DNA of 64,000 nt, from IMG/VR virus record IMGVR_UViG_2974753753_000001, positions 2,809 through 66,808 of that record; one strand, written 5' to 3'. The notes beneath the pieces are model-generated. The model was not told where the DNA came from and made no database searches. It saw only the letters and a list, made by a program, of their open reading frames with translations. This document shows, in pieces, positions 47,337-51,644 of the stretch. The stretch comes from a virus (lineage: Duplodnaviria; Caudoviricetes). The position numbers and the translations under genes are program-made. The first letter of the stretch is position 1; each line of letters begins with the position of its first letter.

Positions 47337-48212
47337 TCAGAACGCCGGACGGCGCTTCCGGCCAGCGGACGCGGCGGCGGCCTTCTTGGCGGGGGCCTTC
47401 TTCGGCTCCGGCTCGGGCTCGGGCTCGGGCTCCGGATCGTCGTCCGGGTCGTAGACGACCTCTTCCTCCTCGACGTCGGCGTCGATGTCGACCGGCTCCG
47501 AATCGTCCTCCTCGGGGTCCTCGACGACCTCCTCCTCGACGCTGTCCGCGTCGTCGTCGACCACCCCTTCCTCGATGTCGGCGTCATCGACGTCGATGAC
47601 CTCGGTGTCGTCGATGTCCACGTCGTCATCGTCCACGGCGGTGCCCGGGACCTCGTGGTCGGCCGGGTGGACGTCGTTGATGCGCAGCGAGCGCACGTTC
47701 TCGACCTTCACCTTGCCGTCGGCGCCCTTGGACTTGCGCTTGTAGTTGTCGTCGCGAGCGGAGACGACGACCGGTAGGCCCTTGAACTTCTTGCCGGACA
47801 CGACGAGGTTGCCGATCTTCAGGATCTTCTCGCCCTTGTCGTCCATGATCGCGTCGCCACCCCAGAACTTCGCGCGCAGCGAGGTGTCACCGGCGATCGC
47901 GTCGAGCAGACGGTTGATCCGGCCGACGAACAGGTCGGCGTTCTCGTCGCCCATACTCTCGGGGATCACGATGCGCTCGAAGATGGCGTAGCCGTTGTAC
48001 TTCGAGACCGGGTCGTCCTTCGGAGCGTCGAACTCGACGACCGCGACCAGCAGATCCTTGTCCTTGGCCTTGTTCGGCTTGATGGACAGGTTCCGCACCT
48101 TCGCGCGATAGATACCCCGCGGAGGAACCTCGCCGACGTACTGACTGAATCCGGCGGTGGCCTCGACCTTTGCGGCCTCCGCACCGATTTTCAGTTTGAG
48201 CTTTGTGGCCAT
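47337..48212 (-). CDS. Probable ssDNA-binding protein with long acidic tail
   Basis: PPRGIYRAKV; D/E-rich C-terminus ending in F; next to the AAA ATPase. Confidence 0.65.
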   Translation of the reverse strand: MATKLKLKIGAEAAKVEATAGFSQYVGEVPPRGIYRAKVRNLSIKPNKAKDKDLLVAVVEFDAPKDDPVSKYNGYAIFERIVIPESMGDENADLFVGRINRLLDAIAGDTSLRAKFWGGDAIMDDKGEKILKIGNLVVSGKKFKGLPVVVSARDDNYKRKSKGADGKVKVENVRSLRINDVHPADHEVPGTAVDDDDVDIDDTEVIDVDDADIEEGVVDDDADSVEEEVVEDPEEDDSEPVDIDADVEEEEVVYDPDDDPEPEPEPEPEPKKAPAKKAAAASAGRKRRPAF

Positions 48213-48228
48213 TCTGGATTGTCTCCCT

Positions 48229-49008
48229 CTACTCCGAGCCGACGGCGTTCGACGACTCGATGATCTTCGTGATGTCGGCAAGCCCCTTGCCGACGGTCCG
48301 GCGGCCGAGAGCGTCGAAACGGTCCTTGGCCATCCACTTCTTGTTGGGCTGCCACTCGATGACGCGCATCGTCTGGACACCCTTGGTCGTCTTGACGGCG
48401 TCCATGTGCATGTAGCCGACCATGTGCATCTGAGCGGCGATCCAGTTCGCGACCTTGCCGTCGCGACCGTGGAAGTTCGGCATCCGCAGGCCCGGGTCGT
48501 CCTCGGCGAACATGGCGTGCGCGGTCCAGCAGACGTTCACCGGCAGGTCGTTGACCAGGGTGACATAGCGCATGAGGCGCATCTGCTCCTCGCCGTACTC
48601 CTGGAGTTCGACCTTGTCGGGGTTGCGCTCGTCGTCGGCTTCGACGTCAGCGTCGACGATGTCTCGGCGGATGTCGAGCTGAAGCTGTGTCCCGGTGTCG
48701 ATGCAGAGCCAGTCGAACGGGAACTTCTCGTCCCGGGTGGCGTCTTCGAGCCAGTTGTAGGCCTCCAGGAAGTTCGACCACTTCGGGCAGCGCCAGACCT
48801 TCGAGTTGCCCGGGGCCTTCTTCGCTGAGATAGTGCCGTTTTCGATGCCGAGGATCAGCGCCCGCTTCGCGCTGCCGAGGAAGCGGGTCTTGCCAATCCC
48901 GGGGTCCCCGTACAGCAGCATCGTGATGTTCTCGGTGTACTCCTGGATGTCGACGATGTCGTCGGGGAGATCGAACCCCTTCAGATCGTCAGCAGTCGCC
49001 GTGGCCAT
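48229..49008 (-). CDS. AAA_24/Sak4-like ATPase (recombinase-like)
   Basis: LLYGDPGIGKT, IDT, WTAH, AKDR. Confidence 0.85.
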   Translation of the reverse strand: MATATADDLKGFDLPDDIVDIQEYTENITMLLYGDPGIGKTRFLGSAKRALILGIENGTISAKKAPGNSKVWRCPKWSNFLEAYNWLEDATRDEKFPFDWLCIDTGTQLQLDIRRDIVDADVEADDERNPDKVELQEYGEEQMRLMRYVTLVNDLPVNVCWTAHAMFAEDDPGLRMPNFHGRDGKVANWIAAQMHMVGYMHMDAVKTTKGVQTMRVIEWQPNKKWMAKDRFDALGRRTVGKGLADITKIIESSNAVGSE

Positions 49009-49058: not shown

Positions 49059-50250
49059 TCAGAAGTCGCCGCGGCGTTCTTCTCGGTGAGCTTCGTAGGG
49101 GTCGCGCACGTGGTAGGCGACGGATTTGAGCAGCTCGGTGTCGCCGTCCTGCTCGTCGGCCAGGCACAGGTCGTAGAAGTCGCAGTCCCACGTACAGTCG
49201 CGCGTCGGGTTCTTGTACAGCGGCAACAGGCCCTCGCGCATGGCGTTCATCGTCTGGATCTCGTCGGCGATGTGCTGGATCTGCTTCCGGCGCTCCTTCG
49301 AGGTCCGGTAGACCGGCTCCCGGTGGAATCGCGGGCTCGGCTGCTTGTTCGAGACGTCGCCGAGCACCGTGAGTCCGTGCTCGTCGGCCTCCTCGATGAG
49401 ATCGGGCAGCTTCGACTTCTGAAGCTCCTTCTCCATCTCCGGCCCGATCGTCTCGACCCAGAGCTTCTCGCCCGATGCGGCCACCTCGCGCTTGGCGTAG
49501 AACTCCATCAGCGCGGCGACGTAGTGCTTCTTCGTCGGCTTGTTCGTCGCCCGACCCTGCTCGTCGACCGGCCGCTCATCCGGCGGGGCTTTCATCAGGA
49601 AGTTGTAGAGAATCCCCGACAGCCGCTCCCGGCCGGTGATGACCCCCTGGCGACGCAGGACGTTGTCGGCGACGGCCCAGTACCCGCCAGCCTGGTCGTC
49701 GAGCGGGAGGTGGTTGGTCTTGATCGAACGGGCCGTCTTGTGGTCCCAGAGCCAGATCTTGCCGGTGCCGAGGTTGCGCGCAACGATGTCGAAGGTGCCA
49801 TGGAACTTGGCCACCGGCGTGCGGTCGGCCGAGTTCCGCGGGATGCGGACACCGAAGGGCTGCTCAGGGGAGAGCACCTCCCACTCCTCGTCCTGGCCGA
49901 ACTCGACGAGGTAGTTCTCCAGCATCGCCTCGCCGACGGCTTCGGCGTCGAGCACGACGTGCTCCTGGTCGGGGTAGAGCGAGCCGGACATGATCTCGAC
50001 CCGGACCAGCTCCATGACCCCCTGGCAATACTCCTTCCACGTCTCGATCGGATCGCGACCGCGGGTGGTGCCCGGGATGTACCAGTGCTCGAAGGCCAGA
50101 TGGATGCCGGTTCCGAACCACAGCGGGAGCTTCTTCCGATTCGACTCCAGACCCTCTCGCCAGGCCCACCACCAACGTTGCGGATCTCGGGCACCGCTTG
50201 AAATCCTTCCGCTCGGAGCCGCGGAGCAGAGGAAGATCAGACGATGCCAT
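49059..50250 (-). CDS. Cas4-like PD-(D/E)XK exonuclease with a 7-nt coding gap after codon 21
   Basis: GGAGGTGA RBS plus ATG50250 gives MASSDLPLLRGSERKDFKRCP; the frame then changes to QRWWWAWREGL...GTFD..DHKT..QAGGY..CTWDCDFYDLC. Confidence 0.85.
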
Positions 50251-50740
50251 TTAGATCACCTCCGTCCGTCACATGAGACCAGTCCTTGCCGGTCTTGATC
50301 CTGCTGATGGTCACCTGGTGGACTCCGTAATCGAGAGCGATGACCCTCTGGGCCTCGCCGTTTTTCAGCCGCCGTCGGATGACGGGGATGTCTTGCTCTG
50401 TGAGCTTCGCCAACCCGTGAGAAGAACCGAGGTGCCGATAGCTTCGAAGACGATCTCCTTGGTTGTCGTAGCGCATGTGACACGACCTGCACCGCGGCGA
50501 GTAGTCCTCATAGACGTCCAGACCGGTAGATCCGGACACCTGCGACCAGTCGACGGCCGGACCTCCGCAGTCGACGCAAGGGAACTGCGAAGCGGACCCC
50601 CGAGCTGCCCGAAGTCGCTGATGCCGAGCCGAGTAACTGGCCCGGCTTCCGGTCCAGTTGTGATGACCGTCCTCGCCAAGCACCCCTCTCGGCCGAGCCT
50701 TGCGCTCGGAACCGCGTAGAAGAGGCAAGTCAGTCGTCAT
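50237..50740 (-). mobile_element. Free-standing HNH-type homing endonuclease gene inserted at the start of the exonuclease gene
   Basis: CVDCG..DW..PRCRSCHMRYD plus C-terminal HTH (AKLTEQD..IALDYGVHQVTISRIKTGKDW); N-terminus duplicates that of the exonuclease; atypical codons. Confidence 0.75.
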
Positions 50741-51102: not shown

Positions 51103-51279
51103 TCAGGTCATGCGGACAGGGGTGGGGTTCTCCCGACCGCAGTCCAGGCAGACCTTCACCCCGAGATGCACGACCCCGGCGGGTTCGCCGTTCACGGTCG
51201 CGGGGTTCGTGCGCAGGTATTTCACCTGGGTTCGGGGGTGTTTGCAGCGCCGGGATGCGCGGCGCTCGGCCCGGTTCAC
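51103..51279 (-). CDS. Small Zn-ribbon-like protein
   Basis: MNRAERR..CKH..CLDCG; GTGA overlap. Confidence 0.6.
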   Translation of the reverse strand: MNRAERRASRRCKHPRTQVKYLRTNPATVNGEPAGVVHLGVKVCLDCGRENPTPVRMT

Positions 51280-51644
51280 TGCGCCACCGGCGGGAACGCG
51301 CCGCGGAACACGTGCCAGACGAGCCCGCCGTCCCGGATCGTCGCGATGTGGGACTCCATCGCCATGTAGACGTTTTCGTACCCCGGCGACTCGCGTCCCT
51401 CTGGAACCGCCGTCGGATCGACACACCCTCGGATGCGATTCTCGTGCAGCGGGTGACCGGTCCCGCGGATCTCGATCGGAACGTACTCAAACGAGTCCGG
51501 GTGGGTCTCGACGATCATCCAAATGTCGAGAAGCCCGGAGGTTGGCTGCATCTGCGCATCGAGGATGCCGATGACGGTGGCGCCGACGACTTTGATCTGC
51601 TGGCTGTCGGTGACGGGGACGGTGAACTTCCAGATGGTTCTCAT
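51276..51644 (-). CDS. Conserved hypothetical phage protein
   Basis: MRTIWKF..GTGH..GLVWHVF. Confidence 0.75.
   Translation of the reverse strand: MRTIWKFTVPVTDSQQIKVVGATVIGILDAQMQPTSGLLDIWMIVETHPDSFEYVPIEIRGTGHPLHENRIRGCVDPTAVPEGRESPGYENVYMAMESHIATIRDGGLVWHVFRGAFPPVAQ

Follow-up and report, generated by a model that had tools for sequence, protein, structure and literature searches.

A putative homing-type mobile cassette with a frame-breaking 7-nt insert at the 5' end of a Cas4-family exonuclease gene in Gordonia phages

To our knowledge, programmed bypassing tied to a homing endonuclease is known from one element family, MobA/gene 60 of T4-like phages, whose bypass cassette is reportedly the subject of work by Bonocora et al. 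from 2011. The cassette has also been reviewed (PMC5009743, the part available). According to the accessible sections of a preprint (bioRxiv 10.1101/2022.08.31.505936), the MobA element has a homologous region and bypass at its 3' end, the bypass is retained after loss of the nuclease, and both the origin of the element and the purpose of the coding gap are still debated. Detachment of peptidyl-tRNA and its re-pairing a few bases downstream are established for short hops and hungry-codon frameshifts in E. coli, and the 'savior indel' of herpesvirus thymidine kinase is accompanied by compensatory frameshifting (both in the accessible part of PMC5009743). The Cas4 exonucleases of actinophages are a frequent landing site of inteins, as reported in bioRxiv 10.1101/2025.01.02.630785; that preprint mentions neither Gordonia nor frameshifting and does not describe the cassette examined here. 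The combination of an endonuclease, a rebuilt start and a 7-nt insert is kin in kind to T4 MobA/gene 60, and no published description of it was found in full-text searches that covered main articles (supplements may list related cases).

We analyzed a 64,000-nt stretch of Gordonia phage DNA, here called the window, from the IMG/VR record IMGVR_UViG_2974753753_000001; all coordinates are window positions. A reading of the letters by themselves (the sequence-only reading) had taken 50181..50740 for a mobile cassette that interrupts an exonuclease gene. The sequence features it listed were confirmed to the base, and comparison with relatives bore out most of its interpretation. The gene belongs to the Cas4 family, and the cassette occupies its 5' end. 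The cassette, both of its open reading frames (ORFs), the duplicated block and the insert all lie on the minus strand. The cassette is approximately 500 nt in size and has three parts, i.e. a nuclease-like ORF, a new ribosome-binding site with an ATG and 21 codons, and a 7-nt insert. Its target group is the Gordonia cluster CR phages (Zierdtviridae, Emilbogenvirinae). Five carriers were compared (the window phage, GTE5, HubbaBubba, Skysand, and Float294), and 10 relatives without the nuclease ORF were inspected at the insert site. The features of the locus are as follows.

50237..50740, minus strand: nuclease-like ORF of 167 aa, beginning MTTDLPLLRGSERK (from the ORF list)
50699..50740, minus strand: resident (ancestral) exonuclease start, codons 1–14, now the N-terminus of the nuclease ORF (from the match to nuclease-less relatives)
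50731..50699, minus strand: duplicated block, upstream copy (read from the sequence)
50181..50697, minus strand: cassette-specific DNA, i.e. nuclease body, ribosome-binding site, ATG, 21 codons and 7-nt insert (from comparison with relatives)
50259..50263, minus strand: GGAGG, the ribosome-binding site that serves the rebuilt exonuclease start, within the 3'-terminal part of the nuclease ORF (read from the sequence)
50188..50250, minus strand: replacement exonuclease 5' end of 21 codons, MASSDLPLLRGSERKDFKRCP, cassette-borne
50238..50206, minus strand: duplicated block, downstream copy (read from the sequence)
50190..50188, minus strand: candidate take-off codon CCG, the last of the 21 replacement codons (read from the sequence)
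50181..50187, minus strand: 7-nt insert AGATCCG, i.e. AGA + T + CCG (from alignment with relatives)
50183..50181, minus strand: candidate landing codon CCG (read from the sequence)
49059..50180, minus strand: exonuclease body in the +1 frame, from QRWWW to the stop, a Cas4-family PD-(D/E)XK nuclease by profile

The second ORF starts with the ATG at 50250 and begins MASSDLPLLRGSERKDFKRCP. The stop codon of the nuclease ORF (TGA, 50239..50237) lies 11 nt inside this ORF and the GGAGG (50263..50259) 8 nt ahead of its ATG, in agreement with the overlap and the internal Shine-Dalgarno sequence described earlier. The 7-nt gap that had been placed six codons past the duplicated block was found there, after DFKRCP: the carrier sequence is TGC CCG AGATCCG CAA, whereas the 10 non-carriers have TGC CCG CAR. 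The extra bases (50187..50181, with the flanks CCG-AGAT-CCG) separate the codon for Pro from that for Gln in the conserved motif KRCP|QRWWW, and the frame of the exonuclease body is +1 relative to ATG 50250. Since four other independently sequenced phages carry the identical 7 bases, so that the insert is common to five such genomes, sequencing error was ruled out as its source. The comparison with nuclease-less relatives that the sequence-only reading had proposed also mapped the edges of the cassette. The sequence just past the insert is resident-like again, and the insert is the right-hand edge; the left junction of the cassette-specific DNA (50697..50181) is ambiguous by 1 nt. By length arithmetic, the cassette swaps out 17 nt of target and makes the allele 500 nt longer, net, than the native one.

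Both copies of the duplicated block encode the same 11 residues, DLPLLRGSERK, and exactly six of the 11 codons differ synonymously, in the same codon pairs as had been listed. The copy in the nuclease ORF is the resident gene's own start, as first proposed: together with its upstream bases (59 nt), that of HubbaBubba is identical to the native start of the nuclease-less phage BiPauneto, and that of Skysand differs by 1 nt from Patio. The resident copy is thus lineage-specific, whereas the working copy of the exonuclease is imported and of one cassette type in three genera, in line with the earlier view that the host 5' end has been rebuilt. Because the downstream copy came in with the cassette, the synonymous differences would mainly reflect divergence that already existed in the imported copy, and designed recoding was dropped as their main explanation. 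The longest stretch over which the two copies match is no more than 6–8 nt in any carrier, and selection against recombination between the repeats may therefore also have acted.

The identity between GTE5 and HubbaBubba is 90–98% across the cassette only and 30–80% in the flanks, and their synonymous divergence is 0.145 in the nuclease ORF versus 0.48 in the adjoining exonuclease. When HubbaBubba was compared with BiPauneto and Skysand with Patio, both flanks were 95–100% identical around a clean gap (approximately 500 nt for HubbaBubba/BiPauneto). The GC3 is 0.66–0.70 for the nuclease ORF versus 0.91 for the exonuclease. Judged from these alignments, the results showed that the parts of the cassette were co-transferred as one unit between genera.

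The nuclease-like ORF comprises a Cys4/His nuclease-like domain (residues ~17–95) and a helix-turn-helix domain (~100–158), the latter also occurring in PF13392-bearing proteins. It matches PHROG 4160 (function unknown) with an E-value of 2e-30, and the pN/pS of the three intact copies is 0.08–0.14; the window and GTE5 cassettes differ by a pS of 0.50. The ORF had been called HNH, a claim that found no Pfam support: no family matched at E 0.01, the weak matches (E 0.02–0.2) were to helix-turn-helix or unrelated families, and there was no HNH family among the matches up to E 10. A search of NCBIfam gave nothing relevant. One of the 45 members of the nuclease family matched the Pfam HNH entry PF01844 (E 0.0025), and the family profile matched the HNH domain of Cas5-HNH 8yb6 (E 0.0036) in an alignment that takes in both Cys pairs and the final His. 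H40, C58, W65, C84, and H88 are invariant across the 45 sequences. The position aligned near the catalytic His of the solved HNH domain is His in 34 of the 45 members, but the window has Ser there, and GTE5 and HubbaBubba have Thr. In Skysand and Float294 the ORF has decayed to 68 aa.

The nuclease family repeatedly uses the exonuclease gene as a target. Three other members (P0005, P0007, and P0027) are fused to exonuclease N-termini at differing junctions, and more distant members are fused after ...FKRC or ...FKR, which suggests that the ancestral insertion point was the site of the 7-nt insert rather than codon ~14, where the sequence-only reading had placed it. A mirror-image cassette was also observed at the 3' end of the Xenia2 exonuclease gene, where the rebuilt end is recoded in 14 of 15 codons.

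The exonuclease body matches PHROG 1218 'exonuclease' (E 1.8e-127), and the full-length uninterrupted orthologue of Flapper matches PF12705 (E 5e-13). The rebuilt start contains KRC, and CTWDCDFYDLC is found near the C-terminus. We take the Cys of the N-terminal SERKDFKRC to be one of four iron-sulfur ligands, as in the Cas4/AddB nucleases. A Cys followed by a Trp three residues on was scored in 88 of 120 clusters of exonuclease homologues, and most of the remaining 32 have the same spacing by eye, outside the scoring pattern. The body frame is open for 374–381 codons in the four carriers in which it reaches a stop (374 in Skysand) and for 344 codons to the end of the locus in Float294. No ATG, GTG or TTG precedes QRWWW in the body frame of the window, GTE5 or HubbaBubba, and the first Met of these three is approximately 55 codons further in; in Skysand and Float294, a GTG is available as a possible start of the body frame.

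The first 56 codons of the body differ by zero to one nonsynonymous and six to 10 synonymous changes in three pairs (synonymous/nonsynonymous: 10/0 for window–GTE5, 7/1 for HubbaBubba–BiPauneto, and 6/0 for Skysand–Patio). Among the five carriers, the 63 cassette-borne nucleotides vary at 13 sites, of which 10 are third codon positions in the start frame (binomial P 0.0016), and three of the 21 residues of the replacement 5' end vary in the start frame versus 10 of 20 in the body frame. The results showed, as judged from these substitution patterns, purifying selection on the start frame before the insert and on the +1 frame after it. The signal of the body could partly predate the arrival of the cassette if the insertions are recent. 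The signal of the 21 cassette-borne codons, which rests on 13 sites and three lineages, is immune to this problem.

Since selection acts on two frames and an ordinary start in the body frame is lacking in three of the five carriers, ribosomal recoding at CCG-AGA-T-CCG appears to be the best explanation. In crude gene calls, 16 of 14,335 codons are AGA (1.6% of the Arg codons), which makes it the fourth rarest sense codon, and the window contains no tRNA genes. The take-off and landing codons are matched (CCG at 50190..50188 and at 50183..50181), the chance of such a match being approximately one in 64 for a random 7-mer. The codon after the take-off CCG is a sense codon, AGA, rather than a stop, and readthrough in the start frame without a shift could proceed for 58–120 codons. 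A CCG slipped by +1 reads CGA, which allows no re-pairing by tRNA-Pro, and no GGAGG-like stimulator was found just upstream of the site; a Ty3-type +1 shift without re-pairing is possible. When three carrier alleles and one native allele were folded, there was no indication of a stimulatory RNA structure (z -0.3 to +1.2 versus shuffled controls); an Rfam search gave no match at E <= 1, and a scan for promoters and terminators yielded no relevant hit on the coding strand.

Three related sequences are known as proteins, and their inserts are therefore given at that level. The N-terminus of P0201 fits a +1-frame reading of ...RTSERKDFKRCPR, implying a 7-nt insert NGG-N-CCN. P0202 and P0174 start exactly at the GTG within CGG-TGC-CCG, with the body in that frame, which is consistent with 8-nt inserts. 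P0202 fits an 8-nt insert AGG-GN-CCN with a Pro codon just before the resumption codon; P0174 has no Pro codon at the landing position and is a poor fit to a hop. It is conceivable, although we consider it doubtful, that the 7-nt insert is a natural minimal bypass element and that short inserts starting with AGR and ending in a Pro codon are the standard module for immunity plus recoding in a family of homing cassettes of actinophages, an idea that P0201 and P0202 would fit. In such an element, peptidyl-tRNA-Pro would stall before the rare AGA and move from its CCG to the same codon 7 nt further on, and the product would be an exonuclease colinear with the uninterrupted allele. As a hop tolerates 7- and 8-nt inserts and a +1 shift only 7 nt, this would, if true, be a second and by far the shortest class of natural bypass linked to a homing endonuclease.

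The sequence-only reading held that an independent distribution of insert and nuclease among relatives would speak against a single cassette. AGATCCG was identical in all five carriers and absent from all 10 inspected non-carriers (Fisher P 0.0003 by phage and 0.012 by lineage), and it is kept in Skysand and Float294 despite the reduction of the nuclease ORF to 68 aa. The distributions of insert and nuclease are not independent, an outcome in favour of the single cassette. Among the matches listed, the span of the non-carrier record was 7 nt shorter than the query in 54 of 54 rows (8 nt in six rows, all of the Patio group, for which Patio was also inspected directly). The most conserved DNA block of the exonuclease gene has the insert in its middle and does not vary among the 10 non-carriers (on the 5' side, 24 of 25 nt).

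A 15-mer scan of IMG/VR for further carriers (at least 118 stretches) gave one relevant contig among the matches listed. A longer degenerate pattern returned the same single IMG/VR contig and nothing from the metagenome or genome collections. The protein profile of the nuclease found only this contig in IMG/VR, none among genome contigs, and 17 distant loci among metagenome contigs, none adjoining an exonuclease in the two that were examined. Scans with P0005, P0007, P0027, P0201, and P0174 gave only ordinary in-frame exonucleases or unrelated contexts; the one frame-split locus among 28 from the individual-protein scans was again the same IMG/VR contig. The DNA encoding P0201, P0202, and P0174 was not found by tblastn against the phage collection (best identities 53–74%), and a start-frame peptide search for other carriers found nothing.

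We consider it probable, given the sequence comparisons, that the locus represents a homing-type mobile cassette in the 5' end of the exonuclease gene, with recoding over the insert and insert-borne immunity. The cassette would target the most conserved stretch at the exonuclease 5' end. The nuclease-like ORF reads in frame from the resident exonuclease start, and would therefore borrow the translation signals of the exonuclease, whose N-terminus is rebuilt from the ribosome-binding site, ATG, and 21 codons that the cassette brings. After initiation at ATG 50250, ribosomes would pause with peptidyl-tRNA-Pro on CCG in the P site and AGA in the A site, and a fraction of them would change frame, either by a 7-nt hop, giving the native protein sequence, or by a +1 shift, giving two extra residues; either event would yield full-length exonuclease. 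The insert, helped by the differences in the 21 imported codons, would break the recognition site of the nuclease, so that carrier genomes would be immune and nuclease-less alleles would be cut and converted.

We regard it as improbable that the cassette is purely parasitic and has knocked out the exonuclease, with the frame and the synonymous pattern left over from a recent insertion and no recoding. In GenBank the gene does count as truncated (GTE5, 318 aa; HubbaBubba, 326 aa), neither a stimulatory structure nor a classic slippery site was found, and HubbaBubba and Skysand, with their flanks 95–100% identical to those of non-carriers, resemble recent acquisitions; however, the 21 codons found only in the cassette still have 10 of 13 changes at third positions and three of 21 residues variable, and the window and GTE5 cassettes, at a pS of 0.50, yet have both body frames open. 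These two phages also differ by 10 synonymous and no nonsynonymous changes over 56 codons that a downstream start would leave untranslated, and in Skysand (374 codons) and Float294 (344 to the end of the locus) the open frame has outlived the nuclease. The lack of ATG, GTG or TTG before QRWWW in the window, GTE5, and HubbaBubba, with the first Met approximately 55 codons in, argues against another explanation, in which a non-canonical or downstream start serves the exonuclease body independently, the first 21 residues are dispensable, and the rebuilt start serves coupling or a short product. This explanation could draw on the body-frame GTG of Skysand and Float294 and on P0202 and P0174, which begin at the GTG inside CGG-TGC-CCG. 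We find it rather unlikely: the body-frame reading upstream of the insert is unconserved (10 of 20 residues vary), and the segment lost would hold the conserved SERKDFKRC motif, its Cys-to-Trp spacing being the one scored in 88 of 120 homologue clusters.

The 7 bases might also be a neutral insertion scar (e.g. of imprecise end-joining), linked to the cassette and non-protective, the frame being saved by background frameshifting only. The insert sits exactly at the cassette edge, CCGAGA is common to both cassette ends, suggesting a repeat made at insertion, and 7 nt is too short for invariance alone to be significant. A frame-breaking scar should, however, be lost or repaired where the gene is under constraint, yet this one is present in five of five carriers including two with a dead nuclease, and its position in the middle of the most conserved block is where a recognition site is expected. 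In the case of MobA, the insert and not the nearby polymorphisms gave protection, according to the available sections of bioRxiv 10.1101/2022.08.31.505936. A mere scar is thus very unlikely.

If the homing-type cassette with recoding is the correct reading, this would suggest that a nuclease with a rebuilt target and a frame-breaking insert is a general way into conserved coding sequence that spares both the gene and the invader. The recoding signal would be at most approximately 10 nt long, and natural alleles with and without it occur at 92–100% flank identity. The phages can be propagated on laboratory strains of Gordonia that are non-pathogenic. At least five deposited or assembled genomes probably mis-annotate the exonuclease as truncated or with a wrong start.

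The inteins of Cas4 exonucleases and the present cassette are homing elements that hit the same host gene family in actinophages; unlike the cassette, the inteins restore the protein by protein splicing and occupy other sites in the gene (bioRxiv 10.1101/2025.01.02.630785, accessible portion). As with the savior indel, an indel would be kept for protection while low-level frameshifting gives enough product. For the savior indel the protection is from a drug, with frameshifting in a homopolymer run (PMC5009743), whereas the Gordonia insert is presumed to protect against a homing nuclease and contains no homopolymer. The matched codons around a slow-to-decode A-site codon resemble the short hops of E. 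coli, which, in the part of PMC5009743 available, are synthetic, starvation or over-expression cases and mostly inefficient; the Gordonia case would be natural, evolutionarily maintained, and required for a conserved protein. The slow A-site codon, AGA, is also shared with hungry-codon +1 sites of the prfB/Ty-like kind, but P-site re-pairing and a close Shine-Dalgarno-like stimulator are lacking here.

The T4 MobA-like architecture claimed by the sequence-only reading matched the description of the MobA element in the accessible sections of bioRxiv 10.1101/2022.08.31.505936. In both, a free-standing homing-type endonuclease lies inside a conserved gene of DNA metabolism, and the element brings its own copy of the displaced target region and has, at its 3' edge, a non-coding, frame-breaking insert with matched flanking codons. 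The insert is present in every carrier and kept after decay of the nuclease, and one site is occupied in several phage lineages, each with near-identical element-free relatives. The Gordonia insert differs in being 7 nt rather than 50 nt long, in having the rare sense codon AGA instead of a stop after the take-off codon, and in that the take-off stem-loop of T4 gene 60 was not detected by folding (z -0.3 to +1.2). Unlike in MobA/gene 60, the exonuclease gene has its 5' end replaced instead of being divided over two polypeptides, its resident start leads in frame into the nuclease ORF, and a +1 frameshift is viable as an alternative to bypassing. A further difference is that the nuclease domain is not recognized by Pfam as HNH. 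With an actinophage as host and a Cas4-family exonuclease as target, the Gordonia cassette appears to be unrelated to MobA, having the same architecture in another phage group, another host phylum, and another target gene.

In the window, which covers bases 2809-66808 of the 66,808-bp viral record, all genes of the cassette region lie on the minus strand, and we observed the following arrangement:

50740..50237, minus strand: nuclease-like ORF, 167 aa, N-terminus MTTDLPLLRGSERK
50239..50237, minus strand: stop of the nuclease-like ORF, overlapping the second ORF
50263..50259, minus strand: GGAGG ahead of ATG 50250
ATG 50250, minus strand: start of the second ORF (rebuilt exonuclease start), N-terminus MASSDLPLLRGSERKDFKRCP
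50190..50188, minus strand: Pro codon CCG, directly before the 7-nt insert
50187..50181, minus strand: 7-nt insert AGATCCG, followed by CAA CGT TGG TGG TGG
from that CAA to the stop at 49059, minus strand: exonuclease body QRWWWAWREGL..., frame +1 to that of ATG 50250, open throughout

The ORF overlap, the SD before the new start and the 7-nt gap described in the sequence-only reading were thus found directly in the window sequence, and the two copies of the 11 shared residues differ at six of the 11 codons, all synonymously and in exactly the pairs given there. A 122-aa gene at 51276..51644 (minus strand) matches DUF7352 (E 5.6e-18).

The gene downstream of the nuclease-like ORF encodes a Cas4-family exonuclease, as the window body frame matched PHROG 1218 (E 1.8e-127) and the uninterrupted Flapper orthologue matched PF12705 (E 5e-13). 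The window is close to Gordonia phage GTE5 (92% identity over the cassette region), which PMC5559632 assigns to Gruunavirus, Zierdtviridae and to cluster CR1. In the deposited GTE5, HubbaBubba, Skysand and Float294 loci, the annotation for the nuclease ORF is 'hypothetical protein' and that for the exonuclease is truncated or out of frame at the start:

GTE5, locus L001, 1586-2542: 318 aa, internal start
HubbaBubba, locus L005, 1218-2198: 326 aa, internal start
Skysand, locus L006, 689-1852: body-frame GTG start
Float294, locus L008: body-frame GTG start

GTE5 and GRU1 were reportedly described by Petrovski et al. in 2012.

For HubbaBubba and BiPauneto, and likewise for Skysand and Patio, the sequences flanking a clean gap are 95-100% identical on either side. 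GTE5 and HubbaBubba share 90-98% identity across the cassette only, compared with 30-80% outside it, and their synonymous divergence is 0.145 in the nuclease ORF versus 0.48 in the adjoining exonuclease. GC3 is lower in the nuclease ORF (0.66-0.70) than in the exonuclease (0.91). Judged by these sequence comparisons, the cassette (net size 500 nt) is one mobile unit. The exonuclease-start copy heading the nuclease ORF is identical over 59 nt to the native BiPauneto start region in HubbaBubba, and the Skysand copy retains VTSDVVD..., the lineage-specific start seen in Patio, with a single mismatch to it; by this match it is the resident copy, and the proposal that the nuclease ORF uses the ancestral exonuclease start held. 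The working start (MASS... or MAPT...) belongs to a single type across all three genera and is therefore imported, and since the sequence directly past the 7-nt insert is resident-like again, the insert forms the right-hand edge of the cassette. In every carrier, 5-7 of the 11 codons differ between the two start copies, with a longest identical run of at most 6-8 nt. The codon differences and the rebuilt 5' end of the 'recoded start duplicate' stand, and an imported downstream copy and a resident upstream copy explain them without recoding by design. CCGAGA occurs at both cassette ends (left, 50697..50684, ...CGGCCGAGAGGG; right, 50190..50181, ...TGCCCGAGATCCG; both minus strand). Together with the longer fusion in the nuclease-family protein P0005 (...AFKRC-RKPRG), this suggests that the left end is what remains, in shortened form, of an older target copy.

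When searched against Pfam, the 167-aa ORF matched no family at E 0.01, leaving its earlier HNH label without Pfam support at that threshold; it corresponds to PHROG 4160 (function unknown). It belongs to a large family defined by the N-terminal Cys4/His domain, and its C-terminal helix-turn-helix domain is common to proteins bearing the HNH_3 domain PF13392; the family profile search yielded 23,196 proteins (E <= 0.001), many of which matched via the helix-turn-helix domain. Against PDB, a profile of close relatives gave a sole match, to the HNH domain of Cas5-HNH (E 0.0036). H40, C58, W65, C84 and H88 are invariant in an alignment of 45 family sequences, 34 of which have a His nearest the canonical general-base position (Ser in the window, Thr in GTE5 and HubbaBubba), and Pfam HNH touches only one of the 45. 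Some relatives, e.g. Abrogate gp1, are labelled 'HNH endonuclease' in GenBank, and a NUMOD3 motif scores below threshold in the relative Xenia2 gp64. The nuclease ORF is under strong purifying selection (pN/pS 0.08-0.14). On the profile, the conserved residues and the relatives' labels, we name its product a nuclease-like homing protein, probably of His-Me type.

The cassette was found in four phages of the phage collection, intact in GTE5 and HubbaBubba and with an internal deletion leaving a 68-aa nuclease ORF in Skysand and Float294. Among the matches listed, all 54 non-carrier rows aligned only within the exonuclease 5' end, and the record span was shorter than the query span by 7 nt in 48 and by 8 nt in six; these six are the Patio group, and the Patio sequence, read directly, has no insert. 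An exonuclease-query search of IMG/VR gave 28 loci scored for N-terminal motif and body frame, of which 22 had both in one frame, one was frame-split and five lacked one or both motifs. Nuclease and insert are co-distributed, as expected on the sequence-only reading of a MobA/gene 60-like mobile cassette, which is supported on architecture and co-distribution.

Both frames appear to be translated. Across the five carriers, 13 of the 63 cassette-borne bases are variable, and 10 of these 13 sites are third positions in the start frame (binomial P 0.0016); 3 of 21 residues vary when the stretch is read in the start frame, compared with 10 of 20 when it is read in the body frame. In the 56 codons past the insert, which would go untranslated from a downstream Met start, synonymous/nonsynonymous differences were 10/0 (window-GTE5), 7/1 (HubbaBubba-BiPauneto) and 6/0 (Skysand-Patio). 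This body-frame signal could be partly older than the insertions; that in the cassette-borne codons cannot predate them, but few sites lie behind it. In the window, GTE5 and HubbaBubba, the body frame lacks any ATG, GTG or TTG upstream of QRWWW; a body-frame GTG is present in Skysand and Float294, where two changes synonymous in the start frame created it.

The frame change must be confined to CCG AGA TCC G. Peptidyl-tRNA-Pro may hop 7 nt from CCG to the matching CCG, and because these flanking codons match, the hop would restore the native protein. Alternatively, a +1 shift, without re-pairing (in the manner of Ty3) or at AGA-T, would give a product with two additional residues. Of 120 exonuclease homologue clusters, 88 scored for a Cys with a Trp three residues on, and most other clusters have the same spacing by eye outside the pattern; this conserved spacing speaks slightly for a product that lacks the two additional residues, as the 7-nt hop would yield. 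Only three sense codons are rarer than AGA (16 of 14,335 codons in crude gene calls of the window). One such call, 47337..48380 (minus strand), has six AGA in its first 56 codons and overlaps an AAA_24 ATPase gene (48229..49008); its start or frame is probably wrong, so that the count is slightly inflated. The window encodes no tRNA genes, no structure stood out on RNA folding around the site, and no Rfam family matched. For unshifted ribosomes, the start frame stays open for another 58-120 codons in the carriers.

Exonuclease N-termini are also fused to other nuclease-family members at differing junctions, after ...SERKAFKRC in P0005, ...ERKDFKR in P0007 and ...TSER in P0027, and IMG/VR holds an ordinary exonuclease with an AFKRC-type start, suggesting that the family has long been associated with this site and that the ancestral junction is the insert position. 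In Gordonia phage Xenia2 (locus L007, 1950-2432), a distant relative lies in mirror image at the exonuclease 3' end: the last 15 codons of the Cas4 exonuclease are supplied by the cassette as an AT-rich copy in which 14 codons are recoded, and the nuclease ORF runs into the resident exonuclease 3' end and uses the resident stop. Only one base separates this resident end from that of nuclease-less DumpTruck (L154).

Eight of the 120 exonuclease clusters have an N-terminus that is out of frame or truncated at the insert region (P0201, P0202, P0174, P0180, P0190/P0196, P0215 and P0255). The P0201 N-terminus, available as protein only, is consistent with an out-of-frame reading ...RTSERKDFKRCPR and a 7-nt insert NGG-N-CCN; only 4 of 200,000 random windows were equally consistent. 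P0202 and P0174, also protein only, start at a GTG inside CGG-TGC-CCG and fit 8-nt inserts beginning AGG or AGA. As protein-level fits, these three are leads only for further insert alleles. All the fitted inserts would place a rare AGR codon right after CCG. The window has a 199-aa third-frame ORF from its own GTG inside CGG-TGC-CCG (49595..50194, minus strand); the ORF is nonsense in the window phage, but an 8-nt insert would bring the exonuclease body into its frame.

A full-text literature search and passages of the cited papers gave no description of the cassette; the PRFect paper makes no mention of exonuclease or Gordonia, and the terms HNH, exonuclease and frameshift are absent from Pope et al. 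2017.

At the DNA level, no block of the gene is more conserved than the one that holds the insert, with 24 of 25 bases 5' and 14 of 16 bases 3' of it invariant among ten non-carriers. Such conserved blocks are the kind of site chosen by homing enzymes. In the MobA system, the insert and not nearby polymorphisms is reported to block nicking, and it persists past nuclease decay (bioRxiv 10.1101/2022.08.31.505936); likewise, Skysand and Float294 keep the insert despite a decayed nuclease. Since the MobA insert reportedly blocks nicking and the insert outlasts the nuclease in both systems, it is reasonable to infer by analogy that the insert would protect the carrier allele from cleavage. The cassette follows the same logic as MobA/gene 60, but its parts are unrelated and its coding gap is much shorter; it is best classed as a variant of that kind.
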